A stretch of DNA of 64,000 nucleotides from a virus. Positions 3,496-58,262 of this stretch are shown piece after piece (the first letter of the stretch is position 1; the number at the start of each line of letters is the position of its first letter). The notes beneath the pieces are model-generated. The model made no database searches. It was not told the origin of the DNA and was given only the letters and a program-made list of their open reading frames with translations. The stretch covers positions 1 to 64,000 of the IMG/VR virus record IMGVR_UViG_3300050343_000150. One strand, 5' to 3'. The translations under genes were made by a program, and so were the position numbers.

Positions 3496-3507
3496 GGAAG
3501 TGAAATT

Positions 3508-4921
3508 ATGAGTGGATATATTAAAACAATGAAAGATTTAGAAGCAGCAACATACGGATATGGCGGAACAGGAAGCGGCAATGCCTTGCTTAAAGCAGGT
3601 GGAGTTGTAGGTGGTTTCGGTACTCCTCACGATACTAGTGCTAATGCATTTACGGGTGCAGCAGGTCTAGGTGATTTGTACAACCTACTATATGGACAGA
3701 AAGTTTGGTCAATGTATTAAACCAAGAAGTAAACCCTCTAGCAATGCTTGCTAAGAGACCATACACATCTAGTGGATGGAGAGTTCTGAAATCACGACCT
3801 ATTGGTGGTAGTGACGCAGCATTCGGTACAGGTACTAATGCAGTTACCGCTAGTATTTCATCAGCAGATGCAGCAACTCCTAGAGCAGACCAAATTGGTG
3901 GTGTTGGAGAAAACGCAACATTAGGTGGTGCAGATGGTTTCAGAGCAATTGCTCCTGAATATACTAAACTATATGTTAGCCCTAAGACTATTGCACATCT
4001 ATTCGAGTTCTCAGAACTTGGAATGGAAATGGCTGCAATAGATGATGGTGTTGGTGATATTCGTGCTATTGTTAGAGAAGACATGGGTAAACTACACGCA
4101 GAAGTTCAGAGCAAAATGTTAGTTATGCCTCTTGAGAAGTATACTCGAGAACGGTACTACAGGTATTGAGAAGAACTACACTTCACTGATGAAGATAGTT
4201 TCATCTGCTGCTGAAATTGGCAATGTATGCAAGAAGATAACGTCTTCCTAACACAAGAAAACGATGGTACATTCAGCACAACTTGCTGATGCTACAACTA
4301 TCTTTGGTTCAACTAGAACTGTTACTGTTAACACATCAGGAAGCAGTGGAGCATTACCTACACAGGTGTACCATCTTTCTTAGATGCAGAAGTTGATTTC
4401 GGAGCAGGTTATACCTATCAGCTGAATGTAGAGTTCTAACACTAAGCCTACTTAATGATATGATTAGGAAGAATCCGTACAAAACGGTGGAAACCCTAAA
4501 GTTATCTTACAGGATACGATACCATACAGAAAATCTCTGACTTACTACAAGCACAAGAGAGATTTATGGATAGGAAAGAAATCGTTCCTTCCCATAATGG
4601 TGTTCGTGGTGTTAAGGGTCAAGAAGTTGGTTTCAGAGTTGCAACATACTATGACATACCAATCATCCCTGCTAAAGATATGCCGTCAACAGGTAAGTAC
4701 ACATGTAACAGAACCGTATCAGTGATATATTAGTTCTAGATACAGACCACCTGTGGCTATCTGTAATGAAACCTACACAATACTTCGAAGATGGTATTAC
4801 TAGTGGAAACCCATTCGGTGTTGGTAAACTTGGAAACCAAGGTATGTACCGCACTATGGGTGAAACATGCTGTTCTTTCTTCAAGGGACAAGGTAAGATT
4901 ACTAACCTAAAGAGTGCTTAA
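3508..4921 (+). CDS. Major capsid protein (HK97 fold), frameshifted
   Basis: Position after protease; joined frames give YGQKVWS.LNQEVN, SPKTIAHLFEFSE, GFRVATYYDIPIIP, LDTDHLWL, ending FFKGQGKITNLKSA* at 4921. Confidence 0.8.
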
Positions 4922-4949
4922 GTACTTCATTAATAAGTGAAAACGTAAA

Positions 4950-4991
4950 GTAGTAGTCTCTACTCCGAAGTATCGGGGTAGGGATTACTAC
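4950..4991 (+). terminator. 19-bp RNA hairpin downstream of MCP (terminator or mRNA stabiliser)
   Basis: gtagtagtctctactccga-agta-tcggggtagggattactac: 16 Watson-Crick pairs plus 3 G.U pairs. Confidence 0.65.
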
Positions 4992-5015
4992 CAATATAAA
5001 AAAGGGTTGATAATT

Positions 5016-5477
5016 ATGGCATTAGTGAAACTTGTAAACACATAGACCTGAATGGCGAGACTGGTAATAAGAGGGGCAGGGGAAACATATTCCATTAGGA
5101 GCGCAACATGGTCCTTGCGAAGTTACCTGCAAGACATTGCAATAGATTGTATTTAGGAGATGAATCAATTCTTATTGATTTTACACAAGATGATAAGAAA
5201 GGATATTTTCAACTTAGACGGAAGAAGGTTAAAATATCTAAAAGCACATTTAATGTTGCAGAAGAAGAGATGTTTTATCTATCTATATCCAAAGAAAAAA
5301 AACTCCTGTAAAGAAGAAAGGTAGAAGAAGTAATGGAAACATGTTGTTGAAACTGTAATTGAAACTATCCTGCTAAAGGAAGAAAAGGTGATAGAGAAAA
5401 CACCTGCCGCTAAGAAAACCCCTGCAAAAAAGAAAACCCCTGCAAAAAAGACTACTACTAAAAAGGAAGTGAAGTAA
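5016..5477 (+). CDS. Hypothetical protein with Lys-rich KKTPA tail (frameshifted)
   Basis: ATG 5016 after GGTTGA; C-terminus KTPAAKKTPAKKKTPAKKTTTKKEVK* with TAATG overlap onto next gene; region heavily indel-affected. Confidence 0.5.
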
Positions 5478-5752
5478 TGGTTTCCGCAGGTAGTCCTGTA
5501 AAAACTGCAAGTGCAGTAGTAAATGATGGCAGGTGCAAATTAACAAGCATCCATTTTTGTTCTACCGGAACTGCTACATTAAAAATATACGACCATAACA
5601 ATACATCTGTTGGTTCAGCAGATGAGGTTGCTAGATTAATTCTAACTGCTAATAGCACAATAGAATTTGATATGCACAATAGGTCAATGGGTACAGGAAT
5701 AACTGCAATTCTAACAGGTTCGGGCGGTTCATACTCTTGCACATGGAGTTGA
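5477..5752 (+). CDS. Small beta-rich virion-associated hypothetical protein
   Basis: 91 aa ORF coupled to neighbours in the head module. Confidence 0.6.
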   Translation: MVSAGSPVKTASAVVNDGRCKLTSIHFCSTGTATLKIYDHNNTSVGSADEVARLILTANSTIEFDMHNRSMGTGITAILTGSGGSYSCTWS

Positions 5753-5756
5753 AACA

Positions 5757-6182
5757 ATGCCTAGTATTGATACAGATACAAGATTAGTAATGACTATACT
5801 TTTCGTTGGTGCTATTAGTGGCACTAACATTTATTTTTACACTATATATGGAGTTGACTTTCCATACACGGGATTATCCCACGCAGTACTGTTTGGAATA
5901 TGTACAGTAGGAGGTATTATGTTATTGAAGGCATTATTTGATTTAATGTTAAATGATATTATTGAAGATTTTTTATTACAAAGAAAAATAGATGCTTATT
6001 GGAATAGAAAAGCAAGAGATGAGGAAAATCGTAAAAGAGTTAGAGAATCACTTAGAAGTTTCAATCAATCATTCGGTCAACCTTTCTATGGAGATGCTAA
6101 TTTACCTGCAATGCAACAACAATCACAACAGTTTGAAGGGAATACAATTAGCCCAACATTTTTAACAGGGTTCAATGAGTAG
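5757..6182 (+). CDS. Two-TM membrane protein with charged coiled-coil and Gln-rich tail
   Basis: LVMTILFVGAISGTNIYFY and AVLFGICTVGGIMLLKALF hydrophobic segments; RKARDEENRKRVRE. Confidence 0.75.
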   Translation: MPSIDTDTRLVMTILFVGAISGTNIYFYTIYGVDFPYTGLSHAVLFGICTVGGIMLLKALFDLMLNDIIEDFLLQRKIDAYWNRKARDEENRKRVRESLRSFNQSFGQPFYGDANLPAMQQQSQQFEGNTISPTFLTGFNE

Positions 6183-6190
6183 GTGATTAT

Positions 6191-6415
6191 ATGGTAGGAG
6201 AAATCCTAATGGGGTTCGATGAATCCACATTAGCCTATGATTTACAAAGAGCGCATTCTGCTGATATTTGGTTTTTAAGAGCAAGATTTTTTCTTTGGAG
6301 TGGTATTGCTTGTGGAATTAGTTTCTTGGTCGGCCATGCAATATCTTTGTTTGGTTATAATTTGTTTACTTCTACATGGAATGGGATAGTTAATTTATGG
6401 CATCATTTATGGTGA
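6191..6415 (+). CDS. Small membrane protein (one TM plus amphipathic C-terminal helix)
   Basis: FFLWSGIACGISFLVGHAISLFG; TWNGIVNLWHHLW; GGTGA RBS. Confidence 0.7.
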   Translation: MVGEILMGFDESTLAYDLQRAHSADIWFLRARFFLWSGIACGISFLVGHAISLFGYNLFTSTWNGIVNLWHHLW

Positions 6416-6421
6416 TATATA

Positions 6422-7090
6422 ATGTCAGTAATGGCGGGCTTCGCTATTCTATTAGTAGAAGGTATGAATAAAGTTTACCAAAGATTACATTCTATACCAT
6501 TTGGGGTATATGGAGCAAGTAAAGCAGGTAAAACTACATTACATCATCAATTAAGAACTAGAGGTGAAGTTCCTTCTATTACAGATAGAACCGTAGGGCT
6601 ACATAGAGCCTCAAGAAAATATGTAAAATTAGACGGTGATGCTCATACTGTTAAAACTGCTGATGTCGGAGGTGAAACAGTATTTTGGCAAGAGTGGGTA
6701 GAAGATATGAGAACTCGAAAAGTTAAATATATAATTTTTATGTTAGATGATAGACATATGGATAAGCACTATGATATAGAACAACAATTATGTTGGACTT
6801 TTTTGGTAGATACTATTTGTAGTCCTTATTGGAATATTGGCGGAAAAAGAAAAAAGAAAAAGTTACATGATTATCCCGTAGCAGTTGGTCTTTGGGCTAA
6901 CAAACATGATTTGTGGAAAGACAAATATGATTATGAAACAATAGAAAAACATCCAATATTTGAATCCTTTAGAAATGGTATGCAGAAGTTAAATGATAAA
7001 GGAATACCATGCTACAAATATATAGTAAGTGCCAAATCTGATTCAGAGATGGTATATAGAGGAATCCTAACAATGATAAAGGACTACTAA
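6422..7090 (+). CDS. Arf/Sar-like small GTPase (Ras superfamily)
   Basis: G1 GASKAGKT, G2 DRTVG, G3 DVGGE, G4 ANKHD, G5 SAK; hydrophobic N-terminal helix; GGTGA RBS. Confidence 0.9.
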   Translation: MSVMAGFAILLVEGMNKVYQRLHSIPFGVYGASKAGKTTLHHQLRTRGEVPSITDRTVGLHRASRKYVKLDGDAHTVKTADVGGETVFWQEWVEDMRTRKVKYIIFMLDDRHMDKHYDIEQQLCWTFLVDTICSPYWNIGGKRKKKKLHDYPVAVGLWANKHDLWKDKYDYETIEKHPIFESFRNGMQKLNDKGIPCYKYIVSAKSDSEMVYRGILTMIKDY

Positions 7091-7104
7091 GGGTGAATTA
7101 CCAC

Positions 7105-7779
7105 ATGACAATGAACTACAACCCAACAAACCTTATTGGCGCACAGTCAGCCCATGTGGGAACTAACCCATTTTTAGATAGATTTTCTGCCGCAAGAGCA
7201 GCAGGTGCAATTATACAATATGAGTATAAAAACCTAAAGCCCAAAAAACAATTGAAAGAAATAATCAAAGTATTGATGCCCGAAAAGAAAGAAATTCTTG
7301 AAAATACCATACCGATTCAAATATAATTTAAAAGATAGATGTGTGGTATGTGGTTCACAAAAAGTTTGGGAAGCAGGTGATGTTAGGAGACCTCCTCTAC
7401 CTTTACATAAAGTGCGAAAAGGATATCCAATGAGAGGAACATATTGTGAAAAACACGCTCAATGCATAGACAATATGAAATGTTAGAACAACAAATATTA
7501 GCAGAACAACATGGACTTTCTTTTAGTGCATATATACCATCTGCTAAAAGTTTAAATCCCGTTAATCTTGTTAAGGCAGGACCAATGGTTTCATTGAAAC
7601 AAGAGGAAATTAATTCTTTAGTTTCAGTAGGATGGAAAATTATCCCACCTACTAATGAAGCATCCTCGAAAGAAGAACAGTTGTATGCAATGATGGTAGA
7701 AAACGCTGCTATGTCTGAAAGGATTAAATCTTTGTTAGCAGACGGTGTTAAAGTAAGCGTAGAGGGGAGTGAGGGCTAA
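7105..7779 (+). CDS. Hypothetical protein with putative Zn-binding CxxC...CxxH (frameshifted)
   Basis: ORFs 7093-7326, 7298-7486 and 7462-7779 overlap in a way consistent with one gene; CVVC and YCEKH; TAATG coupling to next gene. Confidence 0.6.
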
Positions 7780-8489
7780 TGGGACTTTTTGGAACAAGTA
7801 ATGGTAATCTTTCAACACAAATGAATACTATGGGACAACAGCAATTTAAGTCAGTAAATAACTTATTGACATTACAAGAGAATCATGTAGAAGAGTTTTT
7901 TCAATATCATGGAGAGCCTTTTTTAAATGCATTAGAAAAAATGTTTGAAGATGTAGTAACTAGAGTTGTTAGTCAAATGTTAGTTAAACAAAAATTTGTT
8001 ACTAATACAAATGGAGATTTAGAAATACACCCTGAATCATTATCTGAATTCACTTCAATAACACAAGAAAACATTGATTTGGATATTGTTAATCTTTTGG
8101 CTACTGCGGTTAATTCAGAAGTTATCATGCAACGTAGAATGGCTAAACAACAATATTTAGAATCTCAGGGATTTGCTAGCCCAAGTGCTGGACAACAACA
8201 AGCGGCTATGCCACCACAAATGGGAATGCAAAATCCTCAAGGTTTGAATCCAAGTCAGATTCAAGGTGGGGGAATGGGAGTCAACATTAACAATACTATG
8301 GCTCAACAACAAATGGCTATGAATAATGGTAGTGGTTATCCTGTACCTCCTCAAGGATATGATATGAATAATAACCCATATTGGATTGACCCTGCTACTG
8401 GACAACCTTCCTATACACCACCTCAAAGTGGTTTAGGGTTAGGTGCTGCTATAACTAAAGGTGTAGCGTGGGCTAAGTGGCTAGCATAG
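7779..8489 (+). CDS. Hypothetical protein with Q/M/N/G low-complexity region and amphipathic C-terminus
   Basis: Starts MGLFG; QQQAAMPPQMGMQNPQ tract; ends GLGLGAAITKGVAWAKWLA. Confidence 0.75.
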   Translation: MGLFGTSNGNLSTQMNTMGQQQFKSVNNLLTLQENHVEEFFQYHGEPFLNALEKMFEDVVTRVVSQMLVKQKFVTNTNGDLEIHPESLSEFTSITQENIDLDIVNLLATAVNSEVIMQRRMAKQQYLESQGFASPSAGQQQAAMPPQMGMQNPQGLNPSQIQGGGMGVNINNTMAQQQMAMNNGSGYPVPPQGYDMNNNPYWIDPATGQPSYTPPQSGLGLGAAITKGVAWAKWLA

Positions 8490-8504
8490 GATGGGGTTTA
8501 ATGG

Positions 8505-9806
8505 ATGAGTGTAGATGTTAATATTTCAAATGTCCAAGACCCCGGAATAAGAAATGAATATCAATTAACCAAAAATGAAGTAACTTCTGCAAATATTGCA
8601 AATATTGGAAAAGATGATGCCAGTAAATTGTTAGGTCAGTTAGTAAAATACATTTTTATCAATGCCAAAGGAGCATTTAAGGATGCATCAAAGGCACAAC
8701 GAGTGCAAACAGAAGTCCCATTAATTTTACAACTACCTTCAGATGCTTTTGATTCAGATGAAGAATTATCTTCATATAAAGAATATATGAGAACCTTACT
8801 AGAAAAGGCTGGAGATGTCCCTATTATTACGGCTATTGAAAAAATAGAAGAAATAAAAGGAGCGTTTGCTATACTAGGAGCAAAATCAAAAAATAGTGCG
8901 CATCAAAAAATAGAAGAAAAGAATATAACTTTTAGAGAATTAATTACTTCTCCGGAAACCTTTGGATATCAATATGAAGTAGGAGCAGGAGAAAAAGAAG
9001 AAACTATTGTCGAAAACAAAAAAACCACTAATCTGATGAATGCAATAGATAAAGGAGAAAGTCTATTCGAAAGAAATAGAGTTGAAGATGCTATTAAAGT
9101 TGAACCCGGACTTGTTAAATTAAGCATTCGTGATTATTATGCTAAGATGTTTAAGGATTATGGATTTGGGGATATACGAGTTCAAGGTGGTTCTCCATTC
9201 AAAATACTAATACATAATGCCGACATTAAAGAACTAACGGATAAGGTCTTTGAAGCATTAGAAGTAGTTGACTATAAAGATACCATAAAAGCAAATGGTG
9301 TTAAAACATATTCAAAAGGTAAAACGGAACTTGTTGCTGAAGAGGGTAAAACAGTTAGAAGATTAAAAAGAAATACAAAAGGTGCAGTGATAGTAGATAT
9401 TGATGAAGTAAATGACTTCAAGGATAAATTACTTAAAGAAAGTACGCAGGTAGCGAAAGAATATTTATCTTTAAACGCAGAGCGTTTACTTGGACCTTAC
9501 ATGCAATCTACAACTTCTTCGGGTACTTCAGTAAATAGACAGATTTTATTAGGAGATATTAGTGTAGAATTTAACATTAATGAAATTTTACTAAACGACT
9601 TAGTTGAGAAATATAGTACTAGTAAAAGAGAACTGACTAACAAAACACCTAACCAATCTGAAAAGGGATTAATTCCATTTACTATTAAAGTTAACATCGA
9701 TGAGAAACTCATGGCTTCAGAAGGAGTGTTTCCTGATATGGAAGAAAGTAGAACTATCGGTGGTATTAAACGAGGTTATGCCTCATTACGGAGAATGGTA
9801 TCATGA
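8505..9806 (+). CDS. Hypothetical protein (433 aa)
   Basis: Long ORF with ATGA overlap onto next gene; no motif recognised. Confidence 0.65.
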   Translation: MSVDVNISNVQDPGIRNEYQLTKNEVTSANIANIGKDDASKLLGQLVKYIFINAKGAFKDASKAQRVQTEVPLILQLPSDAFDSDEELSSYKEYMRTLLEKAGDVPIITAIEKIEEIKGAFAILGAKSKNSAHQKIEEKNITFRELITSPETFGYQYEVGAGEKEETIVENKKTTNLMNAIDKGESLFERNRVEDAIKVEPGLVKLSIRDYYAKMFKDYGFGDIRVQGGSPFKILIHNADIKELTDKVFEALEVVDYKDTIKANGVKTYSKGKTELVAEEGKTVRRLKRNTKGAVIVDIDEVNDFKDKLLKESTQVAKEYLSLNAERLLGPYMQSTTSSGTSVNRQILLGDISVEFNINEILLNDLVEKYSTSKRELTNKTPNQSEKGLIPFTIKVNIDEKLMASEGVFPDMEESRTIGGIKRGYASLRRMVS

Positions 9807-10879
9807 GTAAATTATCCTCACCTAGTGATTTCACAAATATAAATGTCAATTATACTAATGGTAGTGGGTATTATACTACTCATGGTGACATATCTAAGAT
9901 GCTACAAATAGCACCATTTACGACTGGAACTACACCTAGTATTGCAGAAGTAGGACTATTAATTAAGAAATCAGAAGAAAGAGTAGACGATATTGTAGGA
10001 CATAGTTATCGTCCAGTAATACATTCTAATGAATTTTATGGATTTGAAGCGTTTAATCATGGTGCTTATCCTGTTCACAGATTCAAAGACTATGTTGGCT
10101 TTGTACAATTAGAAAGACCTAGAGTTCAAAAAATTGTTAGGTTAGAAGTATGGCAAGGTGATAAGTATGTTGATTTAGCATCTGCAACTGCTAAGGTGAA
10201 AATGCCACCTACTCCTCAAAGTGGTAATTGGACTATTACCTTAGGTGTAGGAACTTATACATTTGTTCTTGATAAAGGAATAGATTTCTTTGACAATTTT
10301 GGTCCTAAAACTACTGCTAGTCAAGTAGCCGATGCTATTAACGAAGTTTTCCCCCATAAGACAGCGAAGTTTACAGGAGAAACTGCTGCTAAATCTATTA
10401 CTGCAAATGGTAATAATGCAGTTCATATTTCAGATTTCTTTTATGCCACAACAGATAGTGAAGGAGGAGACACCGTTATTATTTCATCACTACTATTAGG
10501 AGAAGATGGGTCTGCATGTACTATTTCTTCAACCCTTGGTTCAGTTACAGGGTTTACTGATAATCAAGACCAACGTAGGATGGGAGACTACTGGACGATT
10601 GACATTGATGGTAAAATATTCTTTTTGAAAAATTATCCTTACTTACGTTCTCATTCTGTCAGAGTTACATATGTCACTGGTGAAACGAGAGTTCCGGCTA
10701 CTGTACACGATGCGGCGACCAAGTTAGTTGCGGCTGAAATAATTAGACATGATGATAATTCTATACTTATCGCTGATACAGGTTCTAATATTGATTTAAA
10801 GACAAAACATGATATTCTTTTAGAAGAAGCCAATGCTATATTAGATGGTAAAAAGGACGTTATACATTTTATTGCGTGA
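9803..10879 (+). CDS. Putative head-tail adaptor/connector with inserted domain
   Basis: YTTHGDISKML...EERVDDIVG N-terminus and VRVTYVTG..RVPATVHDAATKLVAAEI C-terminus resemble gp6/gp15-like adaptors; position before tail genes. Confidence 0.6.
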   Translation: MSKLSSPSDFTNINVNYTNGSGYYTTHGDISKMLQIAPFTTGTTPSIAEVGLLIKKSEERVDDIVGHSYRPVIHSNEFYGFEAFNHGAYPVHRFKDYVGFVQLERPRVQKIVRLEVWQGDKYVDLASATAKVKMPPTPQSGNWTITLGVGTYTFVLDKGIDFFDNFGPKTTASQVADAINEVFPHKTAKFTGETAAKSITANGNNAVHISDFFYATTDSEGGDTVIISSLLLGEDGSACTISSTLGSVTGFTDNQDQRRMGDYWTIDIDGKIFFLKNYPYLRSHSVRVTYVTGETRVPATVHDAATKLVAAEIIRHDDNSILIADTGSNIDLKTKHDILLEEANAILDGKKDVIHFIA

Positions 10880-10883
10880 TATT

Positions 10884-11078
10884 ATGAGTGAAATTCGCAG
10901 GAAATTTTTTGAAATATTGCGTCTCGAAAAAGAACGTAATTTAGCATTAGAGGAAATATCAGAATTGATTGGGTTTGACATTAGTTTTTCTTCTGAATTA
11001 ATTATAAAAAATGCTACTGATACGTTTTTAAAACTGAGAACAAAGGAAAAAATTCAAGAGTTAATGGTGATGTTTTAA
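10884..11078 (+). CDS. Small hypothetical neck-region protein
   Basis: ATG 10884 after previous stop; TAAATG junction with next gene. Confidence 0.45.
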   Translation: MSEIRRKFFEILRLEKERNLALEEISELIGFDISFSSELIIKNATDTFLKLRTKEKIQELMVMF

Positions 11079-11612
11079 ATGGATGAAGTGACATTTATAA
11101 TTACATTACTAAGAGATAATTGGTCTAGTGCAGGAAGTGCATTAGTTTCTGCTGGTGAAATAACAGCCAGTCACAATGCTACACCTAAATTTATTGATGT
11201 TCGTTCAATAGAAGCAAATGAAGGAATGCGAGTTGATATCGATTCTGAATCAGTACTAATTGTATACGAAGATAGTGCGACTACTGGATATCGGTCTATT
11301 GACTATGCAGCGCGAGATGAAACATTTACCTTTACTCTACATCTACGAATTTTACACCGTCGAGATATGACAGTAAATACATTTTCTAGAGATAGATTAC
11401 AAGCATTATATCGAATCATCAGATATGTTTTAGAAAAGAATGCTTTTAGGCCAACTGTCTATACGACACCCGCAGACGACGCATCGCCGCCGATAGGAGA
11501 CGCAGATTTAATCAAGTTAACTAGTAGGAATGAAGCAAATGATAGAGGAAAAAGACTATTAGGGTATAAAATAGGCGTAGAAATGAAAAGATTCGCAAGG
11601 ACGACAATATAG
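11079..11612 (+). CDS. Putative tail completion/terminator protein
   Basis: Immediately upstream of tail tube; size and alpha/beta pattern typical of that position. Confidence 0.5.
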   Translation: MDEVTFIITLLRDNWSSAGSALVSAGEITASHNATPKFIDVRSIEANEGMRVDIDSESVLIVYEDSATTGYRSIDYAARDETFTFTLHLRILHRRDMTVNTFSRDRLQALYRIIRYVLEKNAFRPTVYTTPADDASPPIGDADLIKLTSRNEANDRGKRLLGYKIGVEMKRFARTTI

Positions 11613-11621
11613 GGTGAAAAA

Positions 11622-13148
11622 ATGGTAAGTAATGAAGTATTTGTAGGTGCTAATGCACAAGTTGGAATCGCTCCTGAAGTTGACATGTTTTTGAATGCAA
11701 TGGTAAGAACTAGCGATACTGTGTTGACACTACATTCATCTGCTAGTGATGTATATTTATTAGTTGAAGGGCTATATGTAGGATGTACTATCAAACTTAC
11801 TGCCGATGGAAGTACAGCAAGTCCTACTTACTACACTATTACCGCTAATACCACAACTACAATTACAGTAGATTCAACAATTGTACCGTCTAGTGGTGCT
11901 ATTGATGGTACAATATTATCGTTTGGTGCGCCTTGCTACGGGCCTAAAAACGGTACTGCTGGAACTATTCTTTCAGATAATTGGGTTGGGTTATTGAATA
12001 CATTTACCCCACCTAATGTAGAAGTAGAAATGAAACAACTTAATCTTGCTGCTGCTGGTGGAAGAAATTTTGATTTTCAATATAAAGGAGCAGAAACCGT
12101 TAGTGGCGGTTCTTTAGAATTATCATTAAATAACGGTTCGTGGTTATATTATGCTTTAGGTAAAATAACTAGTTTGTCAGAAGATGGTGCAGATACTGCT
12201 GTGGCAGGAACAAATGCAAAAAACGTTATGGCATATAATACGTCTAACAAAAATATAGTACGTTCTATTGGGAATAACTTGTATCCGGAATTTGCCGAGG
12301 GTGCAAACGAAGCAGCAGAAAATACTGTCAATATTTTACCAACTGGTACTAAATTTACATATACTTTTGGTGAAGCGGATGACGACGTATTGCCATCATT
12401 TGCACTAGATGTAGCATACCGCAAAGGAGGCCATAGTTCGACTACAACTTTAGATGCACTGACTCCTCATGAAAATATGTATTCTAGAATTTTTACAGGG
12501 TGTCAAGTCAATTCGCTAACTCTTAATTTTGAAGAAGGCCAAGAACTTACATCATCTGTTGAGTTAGTTACACGTAGAGCGTTTGACGCACCTAATGGAT
12601 ATCTACCACTACGCGGCAAAAACACTCTTGCTGCTACTACTAATACTAGTGCAACTGAGGCTGGTCTGATTAATTTTAGTGCAACTGATGCTGATAACTA
12701 TCCTTTCTTATTCTCCGATGGAAGCATCACACTATTTGGACAAACTGTTGCTAGAGTAAAAAGTGGTTCTATTACTATTAGTAATAACTTAACTCCACAG
12801 CGATTTATTGGTAATTACAATAGACAAATAGTATCTGCACATTTACCAGCACAGAGAACATATGAAATCTCATTAACTATGTTAATCACAGACACTAAAC
12901 TATGGGACGAACTTAGAAAAGATGCAGAGTCAACAGGTAGTCTAAAAGTAGAGTTTACAAAATCCGGAGGAGAAAAAATATCTCTTGAGTTTGCTGACTA
13001 TCTAATTAATTCAGTAACTATTCCTTTCCCCGAAGATAAGGGCGCGGTTGAAGCCGAAGTAACAGCACAGGCTAGAACATTAACTGCTGCTTCATATATA
13101 GGTAAATGGGCTATCCCAACTTTAGGCGGAACAGCAACAGGTAATTAG
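11622..13148 (+). CDS. Major tail tube protein
   Basis: SGGSLELSLNNGSWLYYALG, LPSFAL, RIFTGCQVNSLTL, QRTYEISLT; followed by chaperone and tape measure. Confidence 0.75.
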   Translation: MVSNEVFVGANAQVGIAPEVDMFLNAMVRTSDTVLTLHSSASDVYLLVEGLYVGCTIKLTADGSTASPTYYTITANTTTTITVDSTIVPSSGAIDGTILSFGAPCYGPKNGTAGTILSDNWVGLLNTFTPPNVEVEMKQLNLAAAGGRNFDFQYKGAETVSGGSLELSLNNGSWLYYALGKITSLSEDGADTAVAGTNAKNVMAYNTSNKNIVRSIGNNLYPEFAEGANEAAENTVNILPTGTKFTYTFGEADDDVLPSFALDVAYRKGGHSSTTTLDALTPHENMYSRIFTGCQVNSLTLNFEEGQELTSSVELVTRRAFDAPNGYLPLRGKNTLAATTNTSATEAGLINFSATDADNYPFLFSDGSITLFGQTVARVKSGSITISNNLTPQRFIGNYNRQIVSAHLPAQRTYEISLTMLITDTKLWDELRKDAESTGSLKVEFTKSGGEKISLEFADYLINSVTIPFPEDKGAVEAEVTAQARTLTAASYIGKWAIPTLGGTATGN

Positions 13149-55159: not shown

Positions 55160-56011
55160 TTATAACCATCTCATTAAAGAAGTGGAAGGTGTTACTGGTG
55201 TTTTTGTTTTACTGGTTCTATTTTTACGTAGTTTAAGTACTCTCAGTTCAGTGACTGAAAGTGTGTTTTTACAGTAGTCCTGAAAATCAGGGCTTTTTAG
55301 TAAGTCTTTGAAAAGATATACTTGAGAAGGCCGCATTTTAAGCCTCCGCAAAATTCTCGGTAATCTAGAATACTCTTTTCTTTGTGGTGGTGTCATCTTT
55401 CTGTACATTCTACCATCGTGGGCATATGCTAACATCTCGTAGAAGTATGTTTTATTCCATTTTCTTTTTACTTTAGCATCAATAAACATTAATTTGTTAG
55501 GGTGAATATTGGGTGCTAGCCAAGAGATAAATTGTATATCAGCAGGTTCTGAAATTTTCAACATGTCTGCAATAACATCTCTATTTGAATTACGAAGGTA
55601 GTCGCCTACCATGGTGAAAATATCTACTTCATAATTTTGAGGTTCAACTGAACGTGGTGCGATTTCATTTATTTCGTCTCGTAATGATTTCTTGGTTGCT
55701 CTTTTTAGTTTACATAAATTGTATAACTTCTTAGGTACATCTTTTTGATTCATAGAACACAAAACTGTTTGTCCTCTATATTGTAAGATGGTTTTTCTAA
55801 TTAAGTCAATATTAGGTTTGTAATTACACTCTCTGATAATTATTCCAACATCAGCAGGAATACTTAGGTTGTCTTCGATATCATATTCATTAGCATACAC
55901 GATGATAGGAGTATCTGATGTGTATTCTTTTGCTTTAGTTATTTTATCTGTGCCTTCTTTTCCTACTATTATTATTGCTCTATTTTTATTGTTCATTGTC
56001 AATAGACTCAT
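55160..56011 (-). CDS. Degenerate RFC large-subunit-like protein
   Basis: Decayed Walker A IIVGKEGTDKIT; near rfcS; basic tail ending TSLMRWL (PIP-like). Confidence 0.55.
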   Translation of the reverse strand: MSLLTMNNKNRAIIIVGKEGTDKITKAKEYTSDTPIIVYANEYDIEDNLSIPADVGIIIRECNYKPNIDLIRKTILQYRGQTVLCSMNQKDVPKKLYNLCKLKRATKKSLRDEINEIAPRSVEPQNYEVDIFTMVGDYLRNSNRDVIADMLKISEPADIQFISWLAPNIHPNKLMFIDAKVKRKWNKTYFYEMLAYAHDGRMYRKMTPPQRKEYSRLPRILRRLKMRPSQVYLFKDLLKSPDFQDYCKNTLSVTELRVLKLRKNRTSKTKTPVTPSTSLMRWL

Positions 56012-56303
56012 TTACAGCCCTCACTTCCATTATTTCTTCGTAAGTAGTTTTACATTGGTTACAATTTACTACTATTATGAACCAACGTAAGTCATTTTCA
56101 TACTTTACTCCTGCTTCATATGAGAATGTTTTACTGCCACATTCTCTACATCCATCTGAAACCCGTCTCAAAACATGGTGTTCAATGATGTCTTCGTCTG
56201 AAATCTTGTCTCCTGCACCTTTGACATATGATACTGTCAATTGACAAGGGACACAGTAATCAGAAACTGTTTCTCTTAAATTACATCTAGGACACAATTT
56301 CAT
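55986..56303 (-). CDS. Multi-CxxC Zn-finger protein
   Basis: CPRC, CVPC, CREC, CNQC. Confidence 0.65.
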   Translation of the reverse strand: MKLCPRCNLRETVSDYCVPCQLTVSYVKGAGDKISDEDIIEHHVLRRVSDGCRECGSKTFSYEAGVKYENDLRWFIIVVNCNQCKTTYEEIMEVRAVNESIDNEQ

Positions 56304-56729: not shown

Positions 56730-58262
56730 CTACAAATTATCGCTTACAGTGATAATTGTGTCACATTCTGACGGATACTTATCATCTCTAATTCTTAGAA
56801 TTCTAGGAAACCTCATACCATAAGAACCGTCTTGATTTTTTGTTATTGCATCACAACTAACTTCTACTACAATTCTAGGTAAGAAATAGAAAGTGTCTGC
56901 TTTATATGAATCAACAATCTTCTTTAGTCGAACTGTTAAAGAATCTAACTCTTTCTCGGAAACTCCACTACCAACCTGTCCTATTTCAGTAAACCCTGTT
57001 ATTGAATTATCATCCCTTACAGAAACACCGAAACTAGATATTACAGTAGTTCTTCTACCAGTTCCATAGTTGCCGGATGTAATTACTAAATCCAACTCAA
57101 CCCTAGGAGGTTTATGTTTTAATAAACTACTACTTCTCTTAGATTCGTATGGGGAATCTAAGTTTTTTATCATAATACCTTCGAACCCGTCGTTAATTGC
57201 TGTGTAATATGCGGCTTCGATATTGTTATGGGAATACAATTTAGTTTGATATTCTGTTGGTACTAACTTCTTTAACACATCTAATCTAGATTCGTAAGTA
57301 TTATCTATTAATACATTTGACTCACTTAACAGAATATCGAATATTACTAGTTTAACAGGACACTTAAGAATGGCTTCTGCTTTATCCTTAGAATGTACTC
57401 TTGTTGCTAATGATTGATGTGCTGTCGGTTGACCTATATTGTCTACTGGATAAATCTCACAGTCAAATATTGCACTCTGTGTACTGAACATCAAAACTAT
57501 TTCAACTATATCTGAATATTGTTCAGTTACTATTTTTCCCTTTCGGTTAAAGATGATTACACTATCTCCATGTCTATGTATCTGATATCGGTTTCCATCA
57601 TACTTAGTATCAATTATATAATTGGTTGGTAAATTTTTACCATTGTACTTTTTAGCCAACATAGGTTTAACATATGCCCCGTGTACTAAGTTAGGCGGCG
57701 TTATATCATTCTCAAGATAGTGTACTATCATCGATAACGAATTAGTTTTCGCATACACATCGACTTCTGAAGTGTAGTATTTAGATAATGTTTTAGTTAC
57801 TATACTACAATCAACGCCATTTCTAGGTGTCCTCAACCAATATCTAACAAACCATTTTAATTCCAAAGCAGACATACTTCTTATTGCATCTCTTATGGTG
57901 TAGAAACTATTAGAATTCATAGAAGAACAATCTAGTTCTAACAATCTATGAAATTGCTCAGTAGATATTTGTGAATCAGAAGGACTTAAAGAAAACCCTT
58001 CTTGAATAAGGCCTTCACCTAAATCTAACCACTTGTGAGTAGCGTCTTCTATTTCCCATTCAAACACACCAAATATATCTGCTAACCATTTGACTGCTTT
58101 TTTCTCTGCTATATTGTTCATCTCATATTCACGTGATAAAATTCTGATAACTCTTGGTTTATCAGTAAAGTGAGATAGACTGGAATTAAGTATCTCTATT
58201 TTTCTTGTTGGTGTTACGGATTCTAGTGCTTCACACATCCTGCTCATTTTTATTAAACTCAT
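56730..58262 (-). CDS. lig: ATP-dependent DNA ligase (replicative type, with N-terminal DNA-binding domain)
   Basis: KPMLA, TKYDGNRYQIH, FDCE, IFDIL, EGIMIK, LKHK, MRFPRILRIRDDK. Confidence 0.95.
   Translation of the reverse strand: MSLIKMSRMCEALESVTPTRKIEILNSSLSHFTDKPRVIRILSREYEMNNIAEKKAVKWLADIFGVFEWEIEDATHKWLDLGEGLIQEGFSLSPSDSQISTEQFHRLLELDCSSMNSNSFYTIRDAIRSMSALELKWFVRYWLRTPRNGVDCSIVTKTLSKYYTSEVDVYAKTNSLSMIVHYLENDITPPNLVHGAYVKPMLAKKYNGKNLPTNYIIDTKYDGNRYQIHRHGDSVIIFNRKGKIVTEQYSDIVEIVLMFSTQSAIFDCEIYPVDNIGQPTAHQSLATRVHSKDKAEAILKCPVKLVIFDILLSESNVLIDNTYESRLDVLKKLVPTEYQTKLYSHNNIEAAYYTAINDGFEGIMIKNLDSPYESKRSSSLLKHKPPRVELDLVITSGNYGTGRRTTVISSFGVSVRDDNSITGFTEIGQVGSGVSEKELDSLTVRLKKIVDSYKADTFYFLPRIVVEVSCDAITKNQDGSYGMRFPRILRIRDDKYPSECDTIITVSDNL

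Follow-up and report, generated by a model that had tools for sequence, protein, structure and literature searches.

A conserved five-gene cassette around an Arf-like small GTPase in magrovirus-type archaeal tailed viruses: a possible switch at the host membrane

Introduction

In the surface ocean, Marine Group II archaea rank among the most abundant, as do their viruses, and the viruses linked to these archaea include those of the magrovirus type. We know of no established route by which archaeal tailed viruses exit from their hosts. One magrovirus-type tailed virus of 92 kb carries a five-gene cassette centred on an Arf-like small GTPase; Arf-type GTPases bend membranes in eukaryotes, and the question raised by this locus is what such a protein and its neighbours do in a tailed virus of archaea. 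The window analysed here is a stretch of 64,000 nucleotides (positions 1 to 64,000 of IMG/VR record IMGVR_UViG_3300050343_000150), in which an original prediction, made from the nucleotide letters and their translations, had described the cassette as a candidate membrane-remodelling or egress system.

Results

Five co-oriented genes, one of them broken in the studied record

The cassette consists of the following features:

5757-6182, + strand: g1, a membrane protein of 141 aa (open reading frame)
6191-6415, + strand: g2, a small membrane protein of 74 aa (open reading frame)
6422-7090, + strand: a divergent Arf-like small GTPase of 222 aa (open reading frame and G motifs)
7093-7779, + strand: g456, a Cys/His protein of about 228 aa, one gene that is broken here (alignment to relatives)
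7779-8489, + strand: g7, a Gln/Met-rich protein of 236 aa (open reading frame)

Consistently with the predicted five co-oriented genes 0-15 nt apart, every gene lies on the + strand, the gaps being 8, 6 and 2 nt, followed by a 1-nt overlap between g456 and g7, with the next gene 15 nt further on. In this record, a prohead protease gene and the capsid gene lie upstream of the cassette, and downstream of it is a tail-tube gene (11622-13148; Phage_tube_2, E 7.5e-22). The position between capsid and neck genes that had been proposed was thus confirmed on the capsid side, no neck genes as such having been identified. In metatranscriptome contigs from two runs, the capsid gene and positions 5518-6030 (the upstream gene and the start of g1) were covered, and positions 6030-9900 were uncovered in the same two runs, bearing in mind that contigs cannot show absence and that RNA libraries may contain DNA.

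The fourth gene is split in the studied record into three frames (7093-7326, 7298-7486 and 7462-7779), and the "CxxC/CxxH protein" originally taken for a gene of its own (7298-7486, 62 aa) is instead the middle piece of g456. Alignment to relatives traced the breaks to two 1-nt indels, an insertion near 7291 and a deletion following 7458. A single intact open reading frame of about 224-230 aa was found in all 80 relatives (79/79 of those carrying g456); in contigs from two independent DNA runs, the base at 7291 is missing and an additional A follows 7458. Since relatives and independent contigs carry the intact frame, the breaks are peculiar to the studied record; programmed frameshifting was ruled out on the same grounds. 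The capsid gene of this record is broken likewise.

The cassette stays intact across three groups of related viruses

All five genes are present in unchanged order in 71 out of 71 close relatives with full flanks. In two further groups (B and C), the GTPase is only about 30% identical to that of group A, to which the studied virus belongs, yet the layout is kept: the two downstream genes are retained at 79/79 loci and the whole size pattern at 67/79. Homology across the groups is clear for g456 (hhalign 96.6% and 95.2%) and for the central domain of g7 (94.8% and 96.6%). Groups B and C also have a gene with the position and architecture of g1, as well as a 73-99-aa gene at the position of g2, neither being significantly homologous to its group A counterpart (hhalign 2.8% and 21.6% for g1). 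Synteny, which the original prediction had proposed to examine across related viruses, thus extends even to these distant groups.

All five genes are under purifying selection (dN/dS 0.08-0.19), with values of 0.185 for g1, 0.173 for g2, 0.084 for the GTPase, 0.122 for g456 and 0.153 for g7. Together with the constant gene order in close relatives, this selection sets the cassette apart from a chance arrangement. Selection is strongest on the GTPase, whose value is the lowest of the genes tested and which is more constrained than the capsid protein. This conservation bears on a role in host takeover or exclusion, in which the module would alter envelope functions (transport, vesicles, superinfection exclusion or receptor masking) rather than serve release. 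Accessory functions usually vary among related viruses, whereas the cassette is universal in the sampled relatives, and the constraint on its GTPase points the same way. Putative membrane association and a GTPase switch would nevertheless fit takeover as they fit release, and the archaeal GTPase ArvA controls vesicle output in other archaea, which a virus could copy or compete with (PMC10927574). On balance, we regard takeover or exclusion as unlikely.

The distance from the cassette to the head genes is not fixed. The two adjoin in group A; some 20 kb separate them in group B, where the cassette is found upstream of the protease, capsid and tail-tube genes and is oriented like the head genes. 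In group C, the gene just upstream encodes a chaperonin, and no head or tail gene was found with the Pfam models tried, in records that are only 33-79% complete. The predicted placement inside the virion gene block therefore holds for group A and not for group B.

The group A arrangement among head and tail genes speaks against an egress switch, insofar as it would be just as compatible with a module that serves assembly or belongs to the virion. As an assembly factor, the module would build or mark a membrane site for head assembly or packaging, or act as a chaperone, with the GTPase as a checkpoint and none of the proteins in the particle. Its tight packing between the capsid and tail-tube genes in group A, the shared orientation in group B and the neighbouring chaperonin gene in group C are in line with this role; the 20 kb that separate it from the head genes in group B, and group C, with its incomplete records and no detected head or tail gene, are not. 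Moreover, as far as we know, the heads of tailed viruses form without GTPases or membranes. We therefore hold an assembly role to be unlikely, albeit the least unlikely of the alternatives considered here.

The GTPase has an Arf-like fold and few relatives

The GTPase carries the motifs G1 (GASKAGKT, residues 31-38), G3 (DVGGE, with DVGG at 81-84), G4 (NKHD, 160-163) and G5 (SAK). Across 32 homologues, G31, G36, K37, D81, G84, N160 and K161 are invariant and D163 nearly so, and in group A the position of the catalytic Gln is occupied by Glu (DVGGE). All five G motifs had been claimed; these four are present, and the G2 threonine is a candidate, probably lying in an Arg-Thr pair (DRTVG in group A) that recurs in all three groups, in a stretch where the alignment is gappy and the model is coil.

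The AlphaFold2 model (pLDDT 88.9) matched at least 500 small GTPases of the PDB at E ≤ 1e-3 in Foldseek. When structures were ranked with VIA-align, the best 36 rows were all Arf, Arl or Asgard ArfR (Z 18.9-17.3), with an rmsd of about 2.4 Å over about 160 residues, and Rab structures trailed at Z ≤ 17.2, the margin being only about 1.5 Z. In profile comparison with PDB sequences, once P-loop-only RecA matches were set aside, Asgard ArfR (8oun) came first at E 1.2e-8, followed by Arl8 at about 1e-6, and the switch II motif D-x-G-G-[Q/H/E] with a Trp at +11 aligns with that of ArfR. The Pfam Arf model (PF00025) scored 17.8 bits (E 0.0024), below its curated threshold of 22.3 bits, and matched 8 of the 32 family members at E < 0.01 (best 3.1e-6); the top Pfam match was SRPRB, with 22.2 bits (E 1e-4) against a threshold of 25 bits. 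Because no Pfam family threshold was reached, the term "Arf-like" rests on the fold ranking, with its small margins, and on the profile matches. The confident model, the leading place of Arf-family structures and ArfR as the best full-domain profile match bear out the prediction of a genuine, Arf-like small GTPase.

In the model, a predicted N-terminal helix (residues 2-22) precedes the G domain, and in all groups about 22 hydrophobic residues stand before strand 1, with a mean hydrophobicity of 0.54 and a low moment of 0.2. From its composition, this helix may serve as a fixed anchor, as in SR-beta, the SRP receptor subunit, instead of switching as an Arf helix does.

When the GTPase was searched exhaustively with phmmer against 1.84 billion representatives, only 59 matches reached E ≤ 0.001, seven of them E ≤ 1e-30, and no cellular GTPase was among the 59. 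The distant full-length matches that were followed up lay on viral contigs. One further search, with P0134, found no viral contig. The sporadic host-derived insertion that the original prediction had weighed against itself is thus not what these data indicate. The sole match on a genome contig, a 29-kb contig in a "Maricaulis sp." MAG, was read as a mis-binned viral contig and rejected as a bacterial homologue. A tblastn search of the GTPase against GenBank phages returned no match, such a GTPase is not mentioned in four magrovirus papers (PMC5434244, PMC10160649, PMC11706807 and PMC8651126) or in literature on Poseidoniales, GTPases and viruses, and no description of the cassette was found in the searchable literature.

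Two membrane proteins and two orphan partners

Kyte-Doolittle analysis placed the two hydrophobic segments of g1 at about 10-28 and 42-66, ahead of a charged stretch and a Gln-rich tail, and the single one of g2, which has a Trp-rich C-terminus, at 33-51, in agreement with the two and one membrane segments predicted; this pattern is common to groups A, B and C. Neither protein matched a holin or any other family in Pfam or PHROGs, holins being too diverse for such an absence to exclude them, and family searches with g1, g2, g456 and g7 in Pfam, PHROGs and NCBIfam yielded nothing usable.

In g456, C84 and C119 are invariant and H122 nearly so. The CxxC motif is not kept outside group A, and zinc binding is uncertain because its second Cys is not conserved. 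The core of the protein (45-145) was modelled at a pLDDT of about 86; this model had no Foldseek match, reached Z ≤ 4.6 in the VIA wide search, with generic helical hairpins only, and showed no resemblance to a roadblock/longin-fold (MglB-type) partner in either search. The g456 profile found nothing among PDB sequences, and scores in the protein Atlas were at chance level only (0.83).

The g7 protein starts with a short hydrophobic N-terminus (MGLFG), continues with a conserved central domain of about 100 aa and ends, after a low-complexity region rich in Gln, Met, Gly and Asn, in a hydrophobic Gly/Ala/Trp tail. It had no match in Pfam, PHROGs, PDB sequences (profile search) or the protein Atlas.

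In podoviruses, ejection proteins provide a passage across the host envelope, and some or all of the cassette proteins could likewise be virion cargo for entry, packaged and ejected with the DNA, with g1, g2 and the low-complexity g7 forming such a conduit. The membrane segments of g1 and g2 and the Gly/Met/Gln-rich g7 with its hydrophobic ends recall internal or ejection proteins, and the position in the structural block would suit them. However, no PHROGs ejection-protein family is similar to the cassette proteins, the cassette stands apart from the head genes in group B, and we know of no packaged GTPase in tailed viruses, so that we consider this role improbable.

The same proteins bear on membrane-protein targeting, in which the GTPase would be an SR-beta-like receptor and g7 would bind hydrophobic segments in the manner of the Met-rich SRP54 domain, for the insertion of g1/g2-like proteins. 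SRPRB as the top Pfam match, a helix that is hydrophobic and anchor-like rather than amphipathic, and the Met-richness of g7 are consistent with targeting. Since the SRPRB match is sub-threshold, the fold ranking favours Arf/Arl, no SRX or longin-like partner was found (the g456 fold search being empty) and g7 has no similarity to SRP54, we judge it very improbable.

Discussion

The cassette is a candidate for the means by which magrovirus-type viruses affect the host membrane or exit across it. Its most likely function is that of a nucleotide-controlled switch at the host cytoplasmic membrane. We assign a probability of about 0.4 to the reading in which magrovirus-type tailed viruses of archaea share a conserved module of five genes that is centred on an Arf-like GTPase anchored in the membrane and acts as a switch at the host membrane. 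The mechanism that we infer, including GTP cycling, membrane binding, partner binding, timing and purpose, would run as follows. The hydrophobic N-terminal helix would attach the GTPase to the membrane or embed it there, beside g1 and g2, and in its GTP state the GTPase would recruit or release two orphan partners, both soluble: the Cys/His protein g456 and the Gln/Met-rich g7, of which the latter could touch the membrane with its own hydrophobic ends; jointly, the cassette proteins would change the membrane. Our leading guess for the purpose is progeny release, through timed membrane breach or remodelling, because we know of no egress system of magrovirus-type viruses; g1 also has the layout of a class II holin. 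Against this reading stand the Glu in place of the catalytic Gln in group A, which may affect hydrolysis, the sub-threshold Pfam scores of the GTPase, a helix more anchor-like than amphipathic, the lack of family matches and of significant cross-group homology for g1 and g2, the variable second Cys of the CxxC motif and the group A position among head and tail genes. That these viruses leave or reshape their host by a virus-encoded GTPase machine timing or driving two membrane proteins and two partners is, as a whole, doubtful, and the roles in lysis, vesicle release or a membrane assembly site originally put forward are purely conjectural.

The universally conserved cassette offers a concrete five-gene set to test for the exit of archaeal tailed viruses, and its proteins are small, expressible and assayable without host culture.

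Several known systems share features with the cassette. Class II holins have two membrane segments and a charged C-terminal tail, as does the small g1, to which g2 adjoins as a second small membrane protein, both among putative late genes; in contrast to holins, g1 and g2 have no sequence match to holin families and no endolysin is adjacent, and we know of no holin system with a GTPase. If the switch proposed here is real, it would represent GTPase-controlled egress or membrane remodelling without counterpart in known phage lysis. Holin-like genes have been proposed for Poseidoniales viruses of the Adrikavirales (PMC11706807).

SR-beta resembles the viral GTPase in having an N-terminal hydrophobic anchor followed by an Arf-like G domain, and its Pfam family is the top match, albeit below threshold; it differs in its G3 motif, which is DxPG in SR-beta and DVGG in the viral protein, and no SR-alpha-like partner is present in the cassette. 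Giant viruses also encode a Ras-superfamily GTPase, and mimivirus Rab (PDB 5XC5) appears in the fold list at Z 17.2. Giant-virus Rabs, however, are plainly homologous to Rab, were acquired from eukaryotic hosts and target host trafficking, whereas the GTPase described here is of the Arf-like kind, lacks close relatives in cells and comes from a virus whose host is without endomembranes.

In Haloferax volcanii and other archaea, the ArvA-ArvB-ArvC operon encodes an Arf-like GTPase, ArvA, that drives vesicle formation together with the products of two further operon genes, including a zinc-ribbon protein (PMC10927574). The viral cassette is similar in combining an Arf-like GTPase from the archaeal world, with a hydrophobic N-terminal helix, and small partner genes downstream, one of which has Cys/His zinc-type motifs, as well as in its membrane function, putative on the viral side; it differs in adding two membrane proteins and the Gln/Met-rich protein. 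Neither six-frame searches covering five viral records nor Pfam scans of the neighbouring genes produced a match to ArvB (OapB, PF09846), and ArvC (OapC, PF09845) had no cassette match in the five records, Pfam scans of g456 giving nothing. The only OapC match, below threshold, falls in the replication arm (55956-56165, minus strand). ArvA-type proteins were not among the 59 phmmer matches of the viral GTPase.

With the Arf family (Arf1, Arf6, Arl1, Arl3, Arl8, Sar1 and ArfR, the last represented by the Asgard archaeal structures 8OUN, 8OUM and 8OUK; bioRxiv 10.1101/2024.02.28.582541), the viral GTPase shares the fold, a P-loop ending in GKTT, the switch II motif DxGG[Q/H/E] with Trp at +11, and a predicted, potentially membrane-binding helix of about 20 residues before strand 1. 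It differs from this family in its low identity of about 20% and its sub-threshold Pfam Arf score, in a helix that is hydrophobic and not amphipathic, in the Glu that replaces the catalytic Gln in group A, in a basic insert KRKKKK (142-147) and a Ras/Rab-like SAK motif at G5, and in being encoded by an archaeal virus without a known GEF, GAP or coat partner. It also extends the scant record of Arf-like GTPases outside eukaryotes by a branch carried by viruses and, if our reading is correct, would reveal a large, ancient pool of such GTPases beyond Asgard archaea and eukaryotes.

Conservation and spread of the cassette

The cassette is a set of tightly packed ORFs, which are as follows.

5757-8489, + strand: the whole cassette
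g1, + strand: 141 aa, two hydrophobic segments followed by a charged and then Gln-rich tail
g2, + strand: 74 aa, a single hydrophobic segment
GTPase, + strand: 222 aa, with G motifs and a predicted fold
7093-7326, 7298-7486 and 7462-7779, + strand: the fourth gene (g456), read in the window as three short overlapping ORFs
g7, + strand: 236 aa, the Gln/Met-rich ORF

The cassette is real and strongly conserved. The five-gene synteny in the original prediction recurred, in the same order and on the same strand, in every one of the 71 close relatives whose flanks were complete. Pairwise dN/dS was lowest for the GTPase (0.084), followed by g456 (0.122), g7 (0.153), g2 (0.173) and g1 (0.185), with 0.129 for the capsid protein; since dS was near saturation, the ranking weighs more than the values.

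Marine metagenomes contain hundreds of members of the GTPase family. When 1.84 billion representatives were searched exhaustively with phmmer, only 59 matched at E <= 0.001, with close relatives and fragments at the top of the list, and all the full-length distant matches examined lay on viral contigs. Because matches were few and the distant ones viral, the family looks virus-borne and far from cellular GTPases. One GTPase, 76% identical to that of the window, lies on a 28.9-kb contig (NZMJ01000101.1) placed in a MAG labelled as the bacterium Maricaulis sp.; the contig is most likely viral and misbinned.

Beyond the window virus and its close relatives (group A), distant matches led to viral contigs of two more groups, B (80 loci, via P0138) and C (4 loci, via P0135), whose GTPases are only about 30% identical. 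Their gene order is a membrane protein (150-270 aa), a 73-99-aa protein, the GTPase, a Cys/His protein (256-357 aa) and a Gln/Met/Gly-rich protein (190-272 aa); group B has an extra membrane protein of about 80 aa after the Gln-rich gene. The two downstream genes were kept in 79 of 79 group B and C loci with full flanks, and the whole size pattern in 67; the 12 exceptions failed only on small upstream ORFs, as chained by a crude ORF caller. Judged by profile-profile probabilities against mismatched controls, g456 and g7 are homologous across groups, and hhalign demonstrated no link between g1 and g2 of group A and their group B and C counterparts.

hhalign probabilities between groups (mismatched controls at or below 28%)
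Gene: A vs B; A vs C; B vs C
g456: 96.6%; 95.2%; 100%
g7: 94.8%; 96.6%; 17%
g1: 2.8%; 21.6%; 97.8%
g2: 0.9%; 4.6%; 88%

One complete group B record (118 kb) has the cassette directly after a giant ORF of about 2,300 aa; some 20-24 kb separate it from the protease, capsid and tail-tube genes, which follow downstream on the same strand. In a second group B record the protease is about 21 kb downstream of the cassette. Such giant ORFs (about 2,200-2,370 aa, without a family match) stand directly upstream of the cassette in group B loci L114-L159 (e.g. L154, 3-7106). The Pfam models tried detected no head or tail genes in group C, whose records are only 33-79% complete; one of these loci (L162) has a GroEL/thermosome-type chaperonin gene just upstream of the cassette (5250-6785, phrog_5725, E 5.7e-42). 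Placement of the cassette inside the virion gene block, as originally described, thus holds for group A but not for group B. Since its position shifts there while its layout stays, the cassette travels as a unit, untied to the capsid-tail junction. Among rival readings of its role, an assembly site seems unlikely, and carriage of its proteins as virion cargo for entry quite unlikely.

A broken fourth gene in this record

The three short ORFs at 7093-7779 are one gene. Aligned with close relatives, the window carries a surplus base near 7291 and lacks one after 7458; in contigs matching the virus from two independent DNA runs, the base at 7291 is absent and an extra A follows 7458. In all 80 related IMG/VR loci g456 is a single ORF of about 224-230 aa, in pieces in the window only. 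The CxxC/CxxH protein first read as a separate gene is the central part of a Cys/His protein about 228 aa long.

The relative L007 encodes the capsid protein in one intact ORF of 467 aa; in the window its gene (3496-4921) occupies at least four frames (3496-3720, 3675-4169, 4500-4733 and 4709-4921), and public DNA and RNA-library contigs depart from the window sequence by 1-2-nt indels at 3711, 4139 and 4145. As both genes are broken here and intact in contigs or relatives, and as 64 gap openings separate the window from its nearest relative (L004) over 7.2 kb, we conclude that small indel errors are numerous in this record or that it is a defective variant. The 398-aa ORF at 1077-2273, which corresponds to part of a 606-aa ORF in L007, may be frame-broken too.

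Flanking the cassette, the stretch between the capsid gene and a 91-aa gene (5477-5752), at 4941-5477, is poorly conserved, includes an ORF rich in Lys, Thr and Pro (5334-5477) and is covered little or not at all by public contigs; its counterpart in relatives is a 151-aa ORF (4601-5056 in L007). The gene directly 3' of the cassette (8505-9806) is hypervariable in length (433 aa in the window, 1153 aa in L007 at 8098-11559, 962 aa in the related locus L050); its product showed 21-27% similarity, in only 7 of 80 loci, and a family match was not found.

An Arf-like GTPase and its partners

The GTPase carries G1 GASKAGKT, G3 DVGGE, G4 NKHD and G5 SAK, and G31, G36, K37, D81, G84, N160 and K161 were invariant in an alignment of 32 homologues from the three groups. 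DxGG is followed by Glu or Gln in group A, by Gln in group B and by His in group C. Family assignment by sequence search was weak. Pfam matches of the window GTPase were all sub-threshold (SRPRB 22.2 bits, Arf 17.8, Roc, MMR_HSR1), and the best single match over 32 family members was Arf (3.1e-6); SR-beta-like protein targeting by the cassette is a very improbable reading. Searched against all PDB sequences, leaving out P-loop-only RecA matches, the family profile ranked the Asgard archaeal Arf GerdArfR1 first (8oun, E 1.2e-8), followed by Arl8A/B. Alignment with GerdArfR1 revealed a common switch II pattern, DxGG with Trp at +11, which characterises Arf, Sar and G-alpha rather than Ras or Rab.

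The predicted structure gave a clearer family signal than these searches. The AlphaFold2 model from the 32-homologue alignment (pLDDT 88.9), with a helix (2-22) preceding strand 1, matched hundreds of small GTPases in Foldseek; after re-alignment, the best 36 rows were all Arf, Arl or Asgard ArfR (Z 18.9-17.3, rmsd about 2.4 A over about 160 residues), with Rabs just behind (Z 17.2 or less). The protein is Arf-like, but no demonstrable member of the Arf family. In every group some 22 residues form its N-terminal extension, which is hydrophobic and of low hydrophobic moment; the uncharged run is 12 residues long in group A and reaches 21-23 in the others. The extension therefore resembles a membrane anchor more than the amphipathic helix of a classic Arf.

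No Pfam, PHROG, NCBIfam or PDB sequence family matched g1, g2, g456 or g7. Across groups, g456 keeps C84 and C119, and nearly always H122; metal binding is only plausible, because the second Cys of CxxC is replaced in many group B members, though with other Cys or His nearby. Its model has a core (45-145) with pLDDT about 86, the remainder being poorly predicted, and matched no known fold. In g7 the N-terminus is short and hydrophobic (MGLFG, MGWF or the like), about 100 central residues form a conserved domain, and low-complexity stretches rich in Gln, Met and Gly accompany a Gly-rich, hydrophobic tail.

The virus and the proposed function

The source record is linear, 91.7 kb, with an estimated completeness of 93%; the window is its first 64 kb. 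One arm bears the head-tail morphogenesis block (prohead protease, HK97-type capsid protein, tail-tube protein), the other an archaeal-type replication block (family B polymerase pieces, three-domain ATP-dependent ligase, PD-(D/E)XK nuclease). An ATP-dependent ligase domain also lies at the start of the head arm (598-1017, PF01068, E 4.8e-11), the complete ligase being at 56730-58262. The closest named relatives of the capsid protein are those of the haloarchaeal tailed viruses HCTV-1 and HVTV-1, and related sequences are marine (Tara, IMG/VR seawater viromes). Given its size, marine sources and Druskaviridae-like capsid, a kinship described for magroviruses (PMC8651126), the virus fits the magrovirus type.

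The data show gene identity, fold, hydrophobic segments, linkage and selection; as an inference from there we propose, with a probability of about 40%, that a membrane-anchored GTPase switch would act on the host membrane together with g1 and g2 and would recruit g456 and g7, progeny release being its most likely purpose. A rival reading, takeover of the host envelope by the cassette, is rather unlikely. As to expression of the proposed switch, the capsid gene and 5518-6030 are covered by contigs of two metatranscriptome studies, which match exactly in the upstream gene and at the start of g1 and reach no further into the cassette; as these are only contigs, from RNA libraries that may hold DNA, GTPase transcription is neither shown nor excluded.

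Comparison with known systems

Giant-virus Rabs, the known case of virus-encoded small GTPases, are clear host-derived Rabs. The cassette is without description in the searchable literature, where magrovirus and archaeal tailed-virus papers mention no GTPase. Its nearest functional precedent is the haloarchaeal protein ArvA, an Arf-like GTPase whose N-terminal helix is hydrophobic; vesicle formation requires ArvA together with ArvB (OapB) and the zinc-ribbon protein ArvC (OapC) (PMC10927574). An ArvABC operon was ruled out, as OapB and OapC models had no match in the cassette in six-frame searches of five viral records; the sole sub-threshold OapC match (55956-56165, - strand, E 0.001, 15.4 bits, two stop codons inside) sits in the replication arm, a long way from the cassette, and probably reflects a generic zinc ribbon. 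The viral cassette and the ArvABC operon differ in membership and are alike in logic.
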